From Escherichia phage Paul: DNA of 64,000 bases. A model generated the notes under the pieces. The model saw only the letters and a program-made list of their open reading frames with translations. It had not been told where the DNA came from and did not search any database. Below, piece by piece: positions 37,573-44,923 of this stretch. Each line of letters starts with the position of its first letter. Within the stretch, counting starts at the first letter, position 1. The stretch is from sequence record NC_070992.1, one strand, 5' to 3'. The translations under genes were made by a program, and so were the position numbers.

Positions 37573-37581
37573 TATACATTA
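37573..37581 (-). promoter_or_regulatory. TAATGTATA motif, candidate phage-sigma promoter element
   Basis: exact 9-mer on minus strand 60 nt upstream of the SSB ATG; part of the 15-bp palindrome ATGTATAGTATACAT. Confidence 0.45.
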
Positions 37582-37847
37582 CGCTTATACCGATAAGAGT
37601 ACTATATAATATAAGTATCTTTGGTAGTAGATATAACACACCAGTAATGTATATATTGTATAGCTGATAAAGTTATTGCAGGCTTGTATATTGGGCAATT
37701 CACAGAACCCCTTGCAAGTACCGAAGGGCAGGAGCCACCTGCGAGATAAAAATAGAGAATTAAGGAATCCTTGATTTAGGTTGAGGACTCCTAGGACTTT
37801 GATTCTCTATTAAAATCAAAAGAAAACTTAACTTAAAACAATAACTT

Positions 37848-42684: not shown

Positions 42685-42847
42685 CCTACTCCACCTCTAC
42701 TTCAATGTAAGTTCTCTCGCCAACATCGTCTTTTAAGACCCATGACTTGGCATCTTCTTCCGACTTAAAAGCTTTCACAACGCTGTATCCACCTTCCCAT
42801 TCATCACCGAACCAGCGCTGTCCTACGTAAATGTATTCTTTCATCAC

Positions 42848-43132
42848 TCAACCTTTCGGGAATGGCATTAAAAATTCTACAGCAGATTTGATTTCGTTAT
42901 TGATTCGTGAATCACGGTAAGAGATAAACTTACCTTTGCTGTCACGTAACATCACATGGGTTCTGGCTGTTTTGTGAGGAAGCAAAGTGATACTGGTTGG
43001 GATAGTATCAATTCCTACAGAGCATGAATTAATAGTCTTACTCTCTACTAGCAGATAAGACCAAGTACGGGGTTTCTGCTCCGGACGGTTGGGGTATGTG
43101 TCTCGAATCTGTACCATAGCTAATTTATTCAT
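42848..43132 (-). CDS. hypothetical protein, paralog family B (94 aa)
   Basis: shares KTARTxVxLR ... GKFISY ... PFPKG with the adjacent gene. Confidence 0.4.
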   Translation of the reverse strand: MNKLAMVQIRDTYPNRPEQKPRTWSYLLVESKTINSCSVGIDTIPTSITLLPHKTARTHVMLRDSKGKFISYRDSRINNEIKSAVEFLMPFPKG

Positions 43133-43133
43133 A

Positions 43134-43388
43134 TTAAACTCCTTTAGGGAATGGGATGAGATTTTCTACTGCAACACGAAAAGATTTTTCTACGTTCTTA
43201 TTCTTATAAGAAATGAATTTACCATCAGCACCACGAAGGATTACATTAGTGCGAGCTGTTTTAGGGTTAATCTCAATCATCCGTTCGATGACCTTGTTTG
43301 ATTTGTTGTGGTGGTTAGTGAAAGTCCACTTAACAATCTTGCCATCTCTGGTTACATCAAAAATATTTACGATTTTTACAATAGACAT
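43134..43388 (-). CDS. hypothetical protein, paralog family B (84 aa)
   Basis: tandem paralog of 42848-43132. Confidence 0.4.
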   Translation of the reverse strand: MSIVKIVNIFDVTRDGKIVKWTFTNHHNKSNKVIERMIEINPKTARTNVILRGADGKFISYKNKNVEKSFRVAVENLIPFPKGV

Positions 43389-43412
43389 ATTTATTACCTA
43401 GGAAATTTAATT

Positions 43413-43440
43413 TGGTTTATATAAAAGAAAAGGCCACCCA
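43413..43440 (-). terminator. intrinsic terminator-like hairpin
   Basis: minus-strand GGCTACCC-AAAT-GGGTGGCC followed by TTTTCTTTT. Confidence 0.45.
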
Positions 43441-43456
43441 TTTGGGTAGCCTCATA

Positions 43457-43774
43457 TTACGATGAGCTTAAAGCTCCTTTGCGTGCTCCAGCTGCTTTTC
43501 CAGCTCGATCACCACTTTTGCCGCCGTTTGAACGGTTTGAGCTGACTGATTCAACACGTAAGTTGCTTGACGCATTAGAACCTCCAGACTTGACAGCTCG
43601 TTTGTGTCCAACGTCTTTACCTCTGACAGCAGCTTTTCCATCGCGCTTTTCAACGATGCGACGTGCACGGTGGCGCTGAGCATCTCCGCTCTTGCTCCCA
43701 ATTCCCGTTTCACCGCGCTTGATCGCAGTTCTTCTTTCTTGTGCATAATCTCTCTTTCCTACATGGTCTGCCAT
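43457..43774 (-). CDS. basic low-complexity protein (105 aa), possible nucleic-acid-binding
   Basis: SD AAGGAG 6 nt upstream of ATG; K/R/G/S-rich; third-position usage matches the genome; flanked by TAATGTATA motif and terminator. Confidence 0.45.
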   Translation of the reverse strand: MADHVGKRDYAQERRTAIKRGETGIGSKSGDAQRHRARRIVEKRDGKAAVRGKDVGHKRAVKSGGSNASSNLRVESVSSNRSNGGKSGDRAGKAAGARKGALSSS

Positions 43775-43810
43775 TTAGAACTCCTTAATATATCAGTGTA
43801 CACTAAGGAG

Positions 43811-43819
43811 TATACATTA
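43811..43819 (-). promoter_or_regulatory. TAATGTATA motif, candidate phage-sigma promoter element
   Basis: exact 9-mer on minus strand 37 nt upstream of the ATG at 43774. Confidence 0.45.
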
Positions 43820-43828
43820 TGGATGCTA

Positions 43829-44077
43829 TTAAAACTCTGCTAAGTATTTAATATCAGAGGCATATACCTCATCAAAGGAAATAACTTCTCCGTTGTAAAT
43901 AAGTTCTATCTTCAGTATACCAGAGCATTTGGTGTCTTTAGAGTCAACTCTGATAGAGAGCTTATTAACTATCTGAGCTTTAATCTCTTCTATCATTAAC
44001 TCTTGGTTATTATTCACTCCACCCTCCCGGTGGTACAAAACCCTCAGGAACGTCAATGATAGTAGGTTCTCCATCAT
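43829..44077 (-). CDS. hypothetical protein (start uncertain)
   Basis: ORF; 5' end overlaps 44010-44195 so the true start may be internal. Confidence 0.25.
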   Translation of the reverse strand: MMENLLSLTFLRVLYHREGGVNNNQELMIEEIKAQIVNKLSIRVDSKDTKCSGILKIELIYNGEVISFDEVYASDIKYLAEF

Positions 44078-44195
44078 TCATGCAGGTGTCTTCATTGAAC
44101 TCTTCACACTCAAAACATGCTCGTTCGATATTTTTGTAGAAGTCGATGGTTGATGAACCATCACCACAATCTCGGATAACTAAAGCGACTTTCAT
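44010..44195 (-). CDS. hypothetical Cys-containing protein (61 aa)
   Basis: start overlaps PhoH stop (coupling). Confidence 0.3.
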   Translation of the reverse strand: MKVALVIRDCGDGSSTIDFYKNIERACFECEEFNEDTCMNDGEPTIIDVPEGFVPPGGWSE

Positions 44196-44923
44196 TTATC
44201 TTGTTCCTTTTCCATAGCTTTAACAATAGCTTTACAGAAACCAGAACGAACAATGTCATCCGATTCGCCGTCTACAATCTCAGCGAACTCATACAGATCA
44301 TGTTCATCAATAAAGTTAGTAGCCCAAGTAAGACCGCTCTCACGACCACGCATATCATGCTGGTTAGTATCACCCATACAGAACAGCTGAGAGGTTTCTC
44401 CCAATCGAGTCATGATTGAGAAGGCTTCATCTTTAGTGGTGTTCTGGAACTCATCAACGATAACGATAGCATCATTGAAAGAACGACCACGGAGATACTC
44501 CAGAGGTACGAACTCAATGTTACTGTTACCGAGCTGGCATTCATAGAACCCCTTACCATATCGCTGAGTAATAACATCAATGATAGGCATCAGGTAAGGT
44601 TCAAACTTCTCGCGCATCCCTCCCGGAAGTAACCCAAGAGAATTACCCATGCCGACCGAAGGGCGACTCAGGATGATCTTCTGAATCTTACCACTCTTTA
44701 GTGCATCAATAACCGTGGAAGTGATTACAAAGGTCTTACCACAGCCCGCAGGAGCGTCTGTGAACACAACTTGTTTAGTCTTGATAGCATTTAGTAGTTC
44801 AGACTGAAACTGGTTCTGAGGTACTACAGGCTTCGCTAAAACCACTTCTTCAAACTCTCGCTTACCTTTACGAGTGACAAGTGCTTCCCGACGAAGATCT
44901 TTCCGTGATTGACGACGACTCAT
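44192..44923 (-). CDS. phoH: PhoH-like ATPase
   Basis: Walker A GCGKTFV and overall PhoH-like pattern. Confidence 0.8.
   Translation of the reverse strand: MSRRQSRKDLRREALVTRKGKREFEEVVLAKPVVPQNQFQSELLNAIKTKQVVFTDAPAGCGKTFVITSTVIDALKSGKIQKIILSRPSVGMGNSLGLLPGGMREKFEPYLMPIIDVITQRYGKGFYECQLGNSNIEFVPLEYLRGRSFNDAIVIVDEFQNTTKDEAFSIMTRLGETSQLFCMGDTNQHDMRGRESGLTWATNFIDEHDLYEFAEIVDGESDDIVRSGFCKAIVKAMEKEQDK

Follow-up and report, generated by a model that had tools for sequence, protein, structure and literature searches.

Within the genome of Escherichia phage Paul (NC_070992.1), two open reading frames (ORFs) of 105 and 92 aa share one short, GC-rich stretch of a single strand, which raises the question of which of them is a gene, how it is expressed and what its product may do. 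The analysis covered a window of 64,000 nucleotides of this record, which derives from a phiEco32-like Kuravirus and carries the locus on its minus strand. A preliminary description of the same DNA had proposed a self-contained, independently expressed unit for a basic low-complexity protein of 105 aa, and had hinted that the 92-aa frame may also be read. The best explanation of the locus, and in our judgment a highly probable one, is a phiEco32-type monocistronic middle-gene cassette that consists of the promoter P58, gene 58 and a terminator. The locus was matched in 97 phage records by megablast, and it is 94.5% identical to the phiEco32 cassette across 43354-43897. The parts of the cassette are as follows.

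43811..43819, minus strand: promoter element TAATGTATA, P58, middle class, phage sigma factor gp36; exact match to the published consensus tAATGTAtA
43457..43774, minus strand: gene for the 105-aa basic protein, ATG to TAA; orthologue of phiEco32 gp58 and SU10 gp56, member of phrog_4590
43420..43453, minus strand: intrinsic terminator closing the unit; 10-pair stem 43453..43430, then TTCTTTT

The phiEco32 literature states that host RNA polymerase with gp36 was shown experimentally to recognise TAATGTATA, that gp36 promoters carry the single element tAATGTAtA upstream of a middle or late gene and do not require a −35 element (PMC8948821, PMC4331800), and that gene 58 of phiEco32 lies downstream of one of six gp36-dependent promoters identified by experiment (PMC8948821, PMC4331800). 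In the window, the motif that had been proposed as the unit's own promoter is TAATGTATA at 43819..43811, 36 nt upstream of the ATG; it stands at the site orthologous to phiEco32 P58, its orientation fits the downstream gene, and it is kept in every Kuravirus and Nieuwekanaalvirus relative examined. The window contains five copies of the motif where 0.74 would be expected, and a count of five was reached in 0 of 100 shuffles. Two published rules bear on the start site: in gp36 promoters it follows the element by 6-8 bp (PMC8948821), and the centre of AATGTA is at −11.5 (PMC12276001); by both, therefore, +1 of P58 is predicted at about 43804.

43803..43805, minus strand: predicted P58 transcription start, placed by two published rules

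The remaining signals claimed for the unit are also present. The strong Shine-Dalgarno (SD) sequence upstream of the 105-aa ORF is TAAGGAG, 6 nt before the ATG. The terminator downstream of it forms a 10-bp stem with 6 G-C pairs and a 4-nt loop (−18 kcal/mol, z = −3.3); no other minus-strand site in 42800-44300 resembles a terminator. In phiEco32 the promoter element, the leader up to the ATG and the stretch into the gene start are identical to the window, and the gene order is the same (PhoH ... 58-57-56 ... DNA polymerase). SU10 differs from the window by an extra 97-aa gene between its gene 56 and the terminator. Its 104-aa orthologue, CDS56, was identified by mass spectrometry, where 2 peptides covered 18.3% of it (PMC4281155 Table 2). 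The proposal of a self-contained, independently expressed unit for a basic protein is thus supported by experiment in two relatives, through the gp36-dependent promoter of phiEco32 and the detection of the SU10 orthologue, and abundance of the 105-aa product is plausible. The unit had already been mapped in phiEco32, and in this respect the finding is largely ordinary.

The 105-aa product (10,985 Da, pI 11.5, without any cysteine) matched phrog_4590 with E = 1.5e-40. The ORF is annotated in phiEco32 as phi32_58 (YP_001671803), whose product is 98% identical to the window protein and has A19 and V25 where the window protein has K19 and I25. Homologues were found in 251 phage records and 1126 representative clusters; the family is almost exclusively phage-borne, and a scan of bacterial genomes matched only two short MAG contigs. 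In public records gene 58 is named 'hypothetical protein'. In the literature searched, no function or fold is assigned to gp58, and no paper mentions it by name. The dN/dS of the 105-aa frame is 0.10-0.20, with synonymous changes far exceeding non-synonymous ones, and the variable columns at its three codon positions number 24/12/46. Among LUZ24-like phages the corresponding counts, 34/22/85, again favour this frame, which encodes the HNH-like protein described below. Judged by these substitution patterns, the 105-aa frame is the gene and is under purifying selection.

The locus is locally GC-rich, as had been described, with a GC content of up to 0.53 against 0.33-0.45 in the flanks. In the 105-aa frame the GC content is 0.59, 0.58 and 0.34 at codon positions 1, 2 and 3, and the third-position value (GC3) of the long ORFs of the window is 0.366 ± 0.057, with a maximum of 0.57. 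Because codon positions 1 and 2 carry the excess and GC3 is genome-like, the local GC excess is attributed to the amino acids used. A foreign origin of the GC-rich patch was ruled out, since its GC3 of 0.34 matches the genome mean of 0.366.

The second frame on the same strand is the following.

43468..43746, minus strand: +1 frame, 92-aa ORF; taken to be non-coding and to result from the amino-acid composition of the 105-aa protein

This ORF does have the G-rich third positions ascribed to it (61% GC there, 42 G in 93 codons), and several observations could be taken to favour true dual coding, in which a 105-aa basic and a 92-aa helical protein, both functional, would be made from one mRNA. 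In 10 of 10 Kuravirus and Nieuwekanaalvirus sequences the +1 frame stays open over 96-102 codons, and in LUZ24 and L009 over 86-92; gene callers picked this frame in 5 of 6 LUZ24-like records; gene 58 has a dS of about 0.5, half the value of its neighbours, the PhoH gene and gene 57 (0.8-1.4); and a 45-nt block of the gene is without synonymous change in 97 genomes. The substitutions argue otherwise. The second positions of the +1 frame coincide with the third positions of the 105-aa frame, which are the most variable sites (46 columns), and +1-frame codons that differ from relatives comprise 0-4 synonymous and 10-36 non-synonymous cases. The dN/dS of the +1 frame, 1.35-4.1, is indistinguishable from that of the +2 frame. 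Moreover, 7-11, A24 and L008 have stops within the +1 frame, the +1 peptides of Pseudomonas phages are unrelated in sequence, the 92-aa ORF found no family match in Pfam and PHROG, and its GC3 of 0.61 exceeds that of every long ORF in the window (maximum 0.57). Its length is also expected by chance: when the 105-aa frame was recoded synonymously, at least 96 open +1 codons were obtained in 10.9% of the trials, that is, chance yields an ORF of such length in 11%. Only 13 of the 105 residues have T at codon position 2, the usual source of +1 stops, and the +1 ORF stays open because such residues are few. Genuine overlapping phage genes, such as lambda Rz/Rz1 and the phiX174 overlaps, have both frames constrained and both products detected. 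Gene 58 resembles them in having two long same-strand ORFs in different frames on one short mRNA, but constraint is seen in just one of the two, and relatives have lost the other. By this comparative evidence the +1 ORF is non-coding, and the hint of a second, 92-aa reading is unsupported. Dual coding was rejected on the non-coding-like substitution pattern, the stops in distant homologues and the recoding simulation, and is left with next to no probability.

The 45-nt block lies within the 105-aa gene.

43649..43693, minus strand: 45-nt block, codons 28-42, KSGDAQRHRARRIVE; nucleotide-invariant among relatives

The block is at least 99% identical in 97 of the 97 phage records carrying the gene (100% among the matches listed), and the adjacent 45 nt fall below 99% identity in 58 of the 92 records matching there. 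Synonymous variation is absent from the block despite its 4- and 6-fold degenerate codons. However, the case for a unique element is weakened by a comparison of the window with EP335, in which about 20 exact matches of at least 45 nt occur in 43 kb; such runs are thus no rarity in Kuraviruses that have diverged. A structured RNA family was also considered for the locus and set aside, as a search of 43000-44200 against Rfam returned nothing at E ≤ 1.

The nature of the 105-aa product is suggested by its conserved core.

43529..43618, minus strand: HNH-like ββα core (predicted), residues 53-82, KDVGH-KRAVKS-GG-SNASS-NL-RVESVSS-N-RS

The core signature of phrog_4590 is H-x6-GG-x5-NL-x8-N (His57, Gly64-Gly65, Asn71-Leu72, Asn80). 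In 121 sequences H57 is invariant and R8, E13, R34, R38, G64, G65, N71 and N80 are at least 90% conserved; L72 is conserved at 90% or more in the 33 closer relatives. In the AlphaFold model the core (pLDDT 88-93) comprises strands 53-57 and 72-76 and a helix, 77-82, which contains N80, and H57 is placed at the end of the first of these strands. Most members have the aspartate before the histidine at −1; the Kuravirus group, with DVGH instead of DVDH, has it at −3. HNH nucleases carry a catalytic His at the end of β1, as a rule with an Asp before it, a structural Asn (N-L) ahead of β2 and a metal-binding Asn or His in the helix that follows, and H57, N71 and N80 stand at the corresponding places. 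Together, the signature and the model suggest that the gp58 family falls within the HNH superfamily; gp58 itself lacks the four zinc-binding cysteines. Of the proposed 'basic low-complexity protein', the first term stands (pI 11.5), but low complexity does not describe a conserved, probable HNH-superfamily member with H57 invariant in 121 sequences.

Profile and structure searches are consistent with this placement. The window protein itself had no Pfam hit, and most relatives score under the gathering thresholds; one common segment gave sub-threshold Pfam matches to HNH in 16 of 33 members and to HNH_3 in 10 of 33. Among the close relatives P0065 came nearest, with an HNH_3 score of 24.6 bits (cutoff 24.8). 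The Pfam HNH cutoff of 21.4 bits is exceeded only by more canonical family members, the bridging P0091 with 40.9 bits and the fused P0189 with 24.9 bits. A profile from the broader alignment retrieved only HNH domains among PDB sequences (Cas8f-HNH, E = 0.02; Cas9, E = 0.14), and a profile from the close alignment retrieved only insignificant ribosomal-protein matches. In a Foldseek search of the PDB, 17 of 18 matches were ββα-Me nucleases, the Gme HNH nicking endonuclease 4H9D being the first, all with E > 1; in BFVD, phage proteins with an 'HNHc domain' were found at E = 1e-4. Alignment by hhalign to one canonical HNH_3 protein aligned the motif correctly but at a low probability, 2.6%. The large proteins that carry the module had no Pfam or PHROG domain besides it.

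The gp58 protein has in common with the HNH superfamily (Pfam HNH PF01844, HNH_3 PF13392, 4H9D, Cas9, Cas8f-HNH, colicin/pyocin DNases) the pattern DxxH/H-x6-GG-x5-NL-x8-N, which in gp58 is predicted to lie on a β-hairpin plus helix. Two CxxC zinc pairs are typical of many HNH enzymes, though not universal. The gp58 protein is without them; its 'SVSSN' aligns with 'CETCN' of P0091, which puts serines at the second CxxC. It also differs from HNH enzymes in comprising only about 100 aa with no DNA-recognition domain, and from the superfamily in a family-specific N-terminal segment, KRDY-x-QE-R...GETGVGSKSGDAQRHRARR. We infer from sequence and model that gp58 may be a metal-dependent ββα-Me nuclease or nickase. 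Because the zinc site is absent and the Asp before the His is Gly in the Kuravirus group, it could also be catalytically weak or inactive. The Lys/Arg-rich N- and C-terminal segments would hold gp58 on DNA, with no separate specificity domain, and the protein would act in phage DNA metabolism, either in host DNA breakdown or in the processing of replication or recombination intermediates. In Kuravirus, Nieuwekanaalvirus, 7-11, A24, LUZ24, LAh_6 and PhCF1.2, the gene lies up to a few kb upstream of a family-A DNA polymerase gene, among nucleotide-metabolism genes, a statement that covers annotated phage contexts with a labelled polymerase. In L008 and L009, no DNA polymerase was found within the 1.5-kb flanks, where other, unidentified neighbours lie; because of these contexts the polymerase link may be an inherited shared module and not a matter of function.

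Expression of gene 58 may be controlled in its leader as well.

43780..43811, minus strand: leader hairpin; 5' arm ACUCCUUAGUGUA (43811-43799), 3' arm UAUAUUAAGGAGU (43792-43780)

The Shine-Dalgarno sequence AAGGAG (43786-43781) lies inside the 3' arm. RNA with both arms is predicted to fold at −14.7 kcal/mol (z = −2.9) with 13 bp that include AAGGAG, and RNA from 43803 onward is predicted to be nearly unstructured (−1.3 kcal/mol, z = +1.7). The hairpin is retained in 14 relatives, where two single-base variants keep the pairing; no compensatory double changes were found among them, and covariation support is therefore absent. No anti-SD follows the other TAATGTATA sites of the window, and no terminator was found upstream of P58 in the region scanned. 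Folding energies and the published start-site rule together yield a new suggestion, namely that synthesis of gene 58 is gated at translation. Read-through transcripts from upstream would fold the SD into the 13-bp hairpin and be locked, and transcripts initiated at P58 would start within the hairpin, lack the anti-SD and be translated. With such gating the predicted nuclease would be made only once gp36 is active.

The T4-type precedent for control by a promoter inside a hairpin has been reviewed (PMC3014915). In T4 e (lysozyme), soc, 49 (endonuclease VII) and I-TevI and in Aeh1 mobE, a phage-specific middle or late promoter is in the 5' half of the hairpin and the SD in the 3' half, and the same layout is predicted at P58. 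As in the e/49/I-TevI/mobE design, read-through RNA would be locked and promoter-initiated RNA open at P58, and the predicted product of gene 58 is of the nuclease type, as again in T4-type cases. The sigma factor differs, being gp36 with TAATGTATA at P58 and gp55 with TATAAATA in T4. In the literature searched, no hairpin control of translation has been described for phiEco32-like phages.

Other roles for gp58 have to be weighed against an active nuclease. It might be a non-catalytic nucleic-acid-binding protein whose degenerate HNH fold serves as a scaffold for coating or bending DNA or RNA, in the manner of a histone-like or replication accessory factor. The pI of 11.5, the Lys/Arg/Gly/Ser-rich tails modelled at pLDDT 53-68, the loss of the zinc cysteines and, in the Kuravirus group, of the Asp before the catalytic His would all suit such a role, and the strong promoter, SD and terminator of its own suggest stoichiometric, not catalytic, amounts; the SU10 orthologue was, in addition, detected in PEG-concentrated phage preparations. 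We nevertheless regard this role as unlikely, since a mere scaffold is not expected to keep residues at catalytic positions, whereas across 121 diverse sequences H57 never varies and the conservation of N71 and N80 is 90% or more, and an Asp is always retained at −1 or −3 of the His. Many bona fide HNH enzymes, e.g. Cas9 HNH and the colicin DNases, are also without a cysteine zinc site. That gene 58 is a free-standing selfish homing endonuclease gene targeting the neighbourhood of the DNA polymerase gene is very unlikely. Homing endonuclease genes are usually sporadic in distribution, but the gene is present in 97 of 97 records matching the locus and was reported in 5 of 5 C3-morphotype phages; it is under purifying selection (dN/dS 0.1-0.2), and its product of ~100 aa has no domain for recognising a long DNA target. 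Genes that are really mobile insert beside gene 58 as extras, namely an HNH_3 endonuclease gene in EcoN5 and a phrog_9585 gene in SU10. These points are set against an HNH_3-type similarity, as in I-HmuI-like homing enzymes, the presence of the gene across unrelated phage lineages and differing gene contexts, its position in LUZ24-like phages, where it adjoins DNA polymerase genes or lies between parts of them, and the RBS-sequestering hairpins that are typical of I-TevI and mobE.

The family might also supply the site-specific nickase responsible for the localized single-strand interruptions in the DNA of tf/LUZ24-like phages, and perhaps in that of other phages. Homologues occur in the nicked phages tf and Rembedalsseter and in the nick-motif carriers LUZ24 and PaP3, the enzyme is not named in either of the two papers on nicks, and the best structural match is an HNH nicking endonuclease, HNH enzymes often being nickases. 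We consider this hardly probable, as the nick motif WACTRTGMC is not enriched in the window (2 observed against 4.4 expected), a k-mer scan found no strand-biased over-represented 8-10-mer, Kuraviruses are not reported as nicked, gp58 is without an evident specificity domain, and LUZ24-like phages encode other nucleases. A wider proposal takes the mini-HNH protein as a dedicated DNA nickase of the replication module common to phiEco32-, 7-11- and LUZ24-like phages; it would make the single-strand interruptions of the tf/LUZ24 group, its nicks would prime or resolve replication in Kuraviruses, and the promoter-in-hairpin lock would keep it off until the middle phase. This proposal is speculative and, on balance, quite improbable.

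The preferred reading remains the middle-gene cassette described above, with gp58 as a probable small HNH-type protein. For this phage group the frame question is already answered by experiment, and current understanding stays unchanged unless gp58 proves to be a specific nickase. Comparative data show how a long open +1 frame arises of itself in the gene of a K/R/G/S-rich protein, an artefact that misled the annotation of at least 5 LUZ24-like genomes ('membrane protein'). The analysis offers a plausible fold and chemistry, HNH nuclease-like, for the widespread and so far unnamed family phrog_4590 with its 1126 representative clusters, which travels with the phiEco32/LUZ24-type DNA polymerase module. 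It also points to a predicted translational lock in the style of T4 lysozyme, in a phage with another sigma factor.

The transcription unit of gene 58 lies on the minus strand and consists of the following features, as read from the sequence:

43819-43811, minus strand: promoter element TAATGTATA
between promoter element and ATG, minus strand: leader of 36 nt with TAAGGAG inside
43774-43457, minus strand: ORF of 105 aa (gene 58), ATG at 43774
43746-43468, minus strand: second ORF, 92 aa, in the +1 frame of the 105-aa ORF
43453-43420, minus strand: terminator, a stem-loop with a 10-bp G+C-rich stem and a T-tract

The promoter motif, Shine-Dalgarno (SD) sequence, ORFs, terminator and GC-rich patch named in the preliminary description are thus all present. 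The terminator (fold energy -18 kcal/mol, z = -3.3) is the only terminator-like site on the minus strand in 42800-44300, and GC content peaks at 0.53 at the locus versus 0.33-0.45 in the flanks. A megablast search with 43300-43900 matched 97 phage records at 80-99% identity, all from Escherichia/Shigella phages of the phiEco32 group (Gordonclarkvirinae: Kuravirus and Nieuwekanaalvirus). The phiEco32 annotation lists the 105-aa ORF as phi32_58, 'hypothetical protein', between the PhoH-like and DNA polymerase genes; both the unit and the fact that it is expressed were known beforehand from phiEco32 and SU10.

Four independent tests all favour the 105-aa frame as the gene. Among 10 Kuravirus and Nieuwekanaalvirus sequences, 24/12/46 columns vary at codon positions 1/2/3 of this frame, so that in the 92-aa frame most of the variation falls on position 2, where any real gene is under the tightest constraint. 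Over the overlap, dN/dS (Nei-Gojobori) was 0.10-0.20 for the 105-aa frame and 1.35-4.1 for the +1 frame, which behaved like the empty +2 frame. Codon positions 1/2/3 of the 105-aa frame have GC contents of 0.59/0.58/0.34, GC3 being at the level of the 39 long ORFs of the window (0.366 ± 0.057); GC3 of the 92-aa frame is 0.61, above the maximum of 0.57 among them. The local GC-richness results from Gly, Arg, Ala and Ser codons, and foreign DNA as its source was ruled out by the normal GC3 of the 105-aa frame. Stop codons interrupt the +1 frame in Salmonella phage 7-11, Cronobacter phage A24 and one metagenomic relative, and the peptides it encodes in Pseudomonas phages bear no relation to the 92-aa one, for which no family match was found in Pfam or PHROG. 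A +1-frame stop requires T at codon position 2, found in only 13 of the 105 residues, and at least 96 open +1 codons arose in 10.9% of 20,000 recodings that kept the protein and used the codon usage of the window.

The proteomic check proposed earlier has in effect been carried out on SU10, whose CDS56 is the 104-aa orthologue of the gene 58 protein: Orbitrap MS detected it through two peptides, at 18.3% coverage and with a listed mass of 10.8 kDa (PMC4281155 Table 2). The 105-aa frame is translated. The suggestion that the 92-aa frame might also yield a product found no support, and dual coding is effectively excluded by the substitution pattern, composition, stops in homologues and frequency of chance recoding. 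The sole point in its favour is the synonymous divergence of gene 58, which is about half that of its neighbours (dS ~0.5, versus 0.8-1.4 for PhoH and gene 57). This low value is partly due to an invariant block:

43649-43693, minus strand: 45 nt, codons 28-42 of gene 58, defined by conservation among relatives

The block is at least 99% identical in all 97 gene-carrying phage records, with 100% in every row listed, versus less than 99% in 58 of 92 matching records for the adjoining 45 nt; it contains the 8-bp palindrome CGTGCACG. Diverged Kuraviruses, however, not rarely share exact runs of at least 45 nt (window versus EP335: about 20 in 43 kb), which makes the significance of the block uncertain and weakens it as support for dual coding, as does the fact that each synonymous frame-0 change alters the +1 peptide.

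The 105-aa protein had been described as low-complexity; the alignment instead reveals a real conserved domain. The protein matches phrog_4590 (unknown function) with E = 1.5e-40, and tblastn found homologues in 251 phage records, including Pseudomonas LUZ24/PaP3/tf-like phages (~60% identity) and Salmonella 7-11, Cronobacter, Aeromonas, Proteus, Vibrio and Photobacterium phages. An exhaustive profile search gave 1126 representative clusters, and a one-pattern scan of bacterial genomes returned two short MAG contigs only, consistent with an essentially phage-borne family. In 121 sequences H57 is invariant, and conservation reaches at least 90% at R8, Y10, E13, R34, R38, G64, G65, N71 and N80; the same level holds for L72 in the 33 closer relatives. 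Judged from the alignment, DV(D/G)H-x6-GG-x5-NL-x8-N is an HNH signature. The same segment matched Pfam HNH in 16 of 33 relatives and HNH_3 in 10, all below threshold (at best 24.6 bits versus a cutoff of 24.8), and six relatives matched the NCBIfam model of the HNH-containing protein IscB. In the metagenomic protein P0091 the family-specific N-terminal 75 residues are followed by a canonical HNH ending with cysteines, 'NLQFLCETCNLRK'. It passes Pfam HNH at 40.9 bits, and by its sequence it naturally bridges the cysteine-free family and standard HNH proteins; the fused member P0189 scores 24.9 bits versus a cutoff of 21.4. Against PDB sequences, a broad family profile matched HNH domains only (Cas8f-HNH, E = 0.02; a Cas9, E = 0.14). 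The AlphaFold model built from the 121 sequences (mean pLDDT 77; 88-93 over residues 31-80) has strands at 53-57 and 72-76 and a helix at 77-82, a β-β-α arrangement. In the PDB, 17 of 18 Foldseek matches were ββα-Me nucleases, with the Gme HNH nicking endonuclease on top, all at E > 1 for a domain this small; the best BFVD matches were phage 'HNHc domain' proteins (E = 1e-4). Unlike textbook HNH enzymes, the gene 58 protein has no cysteines, with serines at the second CxxC position, and no DNA-recognition domain; in the Kuravirus group the Asp before His is replaced by Gly, with an Asp two residues earlier, and both terminal segments, N and C, are very basic and modeled with lower confidence. 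Some depositors have already labelled homologues 'HNH endonuclease' or even 'Cas8 protein', so the relationship has been caught sporadically by automatic annotation.

Depositors of five out of six LUZ24-like Pseudomonas phage records placed the CDS in the +1 frame of the HNH-like gene and described its product as having a transmembrane domain (positions within the retrieved loci):

L014 4014-4283: LUZ24 gp26, +1-frame CDS
L023 375-689: tf_29, +1-frame CDS
L024 417-668: UFV-P2 CDS, +1-frame CDS
L025 474-668: Rembedalsseter CDS, +1-frame CDS
L027 414-683: PaP3 orf38, +1-frame CDS

Codon-position variability in this group (34/22/85) shows that constraint acts on the HNH frame. GTG or TTG seems to serve as the start codon in several of these genes, and this probably led gene callers astray. 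In the metagenomic P0116 the +1 frame comes first and the HNH frame after it, most likely through an indel or assembly error.

The sequence and model evidence indicates that the core is HNH-like with conserved residues at the catalytic positions, and the protein probably acts as a nuclease or nickase that depends on metal; a non-catalytic DNA-binding scaffold is a rather improbable reading. The basic tails would tether the protein to DNA, and the predicted nuclease would act on host DNA or on replication/recombination intermediates in the middle phase. A homing endonuclease is unlikely, since the gene is in all 97 records and its product lacks a recognition domain. It is attractive, if improbable, to see in the family the nickase behind the localized nicks of tf/LUZ24-like phages, all of which carry a homologue and for which the papers on the nicks name no enzyme; the nick motif, however, is not enriched in the window, and no comparable strand-biased word was found there. 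Complete mini-HNH modules are also C-terminal in metagenomic fusions of 450-958 aa (P0134, P0138, P0147, P0161, P0182, P0208 and P0212), whose N-terminal parts matched no Pfam or PHROG family, and N-terminal in P0217; the fusion partners could hint at function.

The family lies up to a few kb upstream of a family-A DNA polymerase gene in Kuravirus, Nieuwekanaalvirus, 7-11, A24, LAh_6, PhCF1.2 and the LUZ24 group, among the nucleotide-metabolism genes PhoH, ThyX, NrdG/NrdD and MazG. In the LUZ24 group, where the polymerase is split, the homologue comes directly after its exonuclease part; the unannotated phage TacPo2 has a similar layout, and in 7-11 the orthologue is just downstream of gene 69, whose late promoter has been validated. 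The 1.5-kb flanks of two distant metagenomic homologues contain other genes and no DNA polymerase, so the association may reflect inheritance as a module and not a functional link. The short gap of a few bases that separates the gene 58 stop from the terminator (equivalent to 43454-43457) is a hot spot for insertions, occupied in three relatives:

L015 3372-3665: SU10 CDS55, 97-aa Cys/His-rich gene, phrog_9585
L021 908-1201: Ptacy1532 gene, 97-aa Cys/His-rich, phrog_9585
L020 917-1411: EcoN5 gp047, 164-aa canonical HNH_3 endonuclease

These inserted genes would ride on the transcript of P58, the gene 58 promoter; neither kind is present at this gap in the window. Just downstream of the terminator, two minus-strand genes (43134-43388 and 42848-43132) are tandem paralogues, both phrog_6814, with C-terminal 41 residues 56% identical and ending PFPKG; the 'autotransporter adhesin' label on one of them in some records looks like an annotation artefact.

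Host RNA polymerase with the phage sigma factor gp36 recognises phiEco32's middle and late promoters, which consist of a single element, tAATGTAtA, and six of which were experimentally identified, upstream of genes 6, 13, 26, 40, 58 and 68 (PMC8948821; PMC4331800); the SU10 paper calls three of them middle promoters. The motif noted ahead of the 105-aa ORF proved to be a documented promoter: by sequence, 43819-43811 is the orthologue of P58, promoter and whole leader being near-identical in 14 relatives, and orthology to the mapped P58 indicates gp36 dependence. The exact 9-mer occurs five times in the window versus 0.74 expected, and none of 100 shuffles reached five. Two copies, at 37573-37581 (minus) and 37645-37653 (plus), stand back to back 64 bp apart and appear to mark an exit point of gp36 transcription in both directions.

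Leader RNA with both arms folds into a 13-bp hairpin (ACUCCUUAGUGUA / UAUAUUAAGGAGU; -14.7 kcal/mol, z = -2.9) that buries the SD. According to published rules, gp36 promoters start 6-8 bp past the element (PMC8948821), with AATGTA centred at -11.5 (PMC12276001). The predicted P58 start, ~43804, falls within the 5' arm, so P58 RNA would lack the anti-SD, the upstream segment pairing with the SD; RNA from this start is essentially unstructured in folding (-1.3 kcal/mol). Upstream of P58, a scan that extended to 44300 revealed no terminator-like site, so read-through RNA should exist and be translationally silent. Gene 58 is thus predicted to be gated translationally by a promoter inside a hairpin: in read-through RNA from upstream promoters the SD would be sequestered and left untranslated, and in P58-initiated RNA it would be open. 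T4 genes e, soc, 49 and I-TevI, as well as Aeh1 mobE, are reported to have this architecture (PMC3014915). The hairpin is conserved among relatives, without compensatory changes, and no anti-SD follows the other TAATGTATA sites of the window. A weak sigma-70-like promoter (TTAGCA-16-CATAAT, 43816-43843, minus) overlaps the gp36 element, and the SU10 paper places a sigma-70 promoter with a poor -35 at the same position; a start from it would keep most of the anti-SD, whereas a gp36 start would not.

Beyond what was known of this unit, the present analysis formally settles which of the two frames is the gene, draws together the case for a cysteine-free mini-HNH family linked to a polymerase module, and proposes a testable translational lock.
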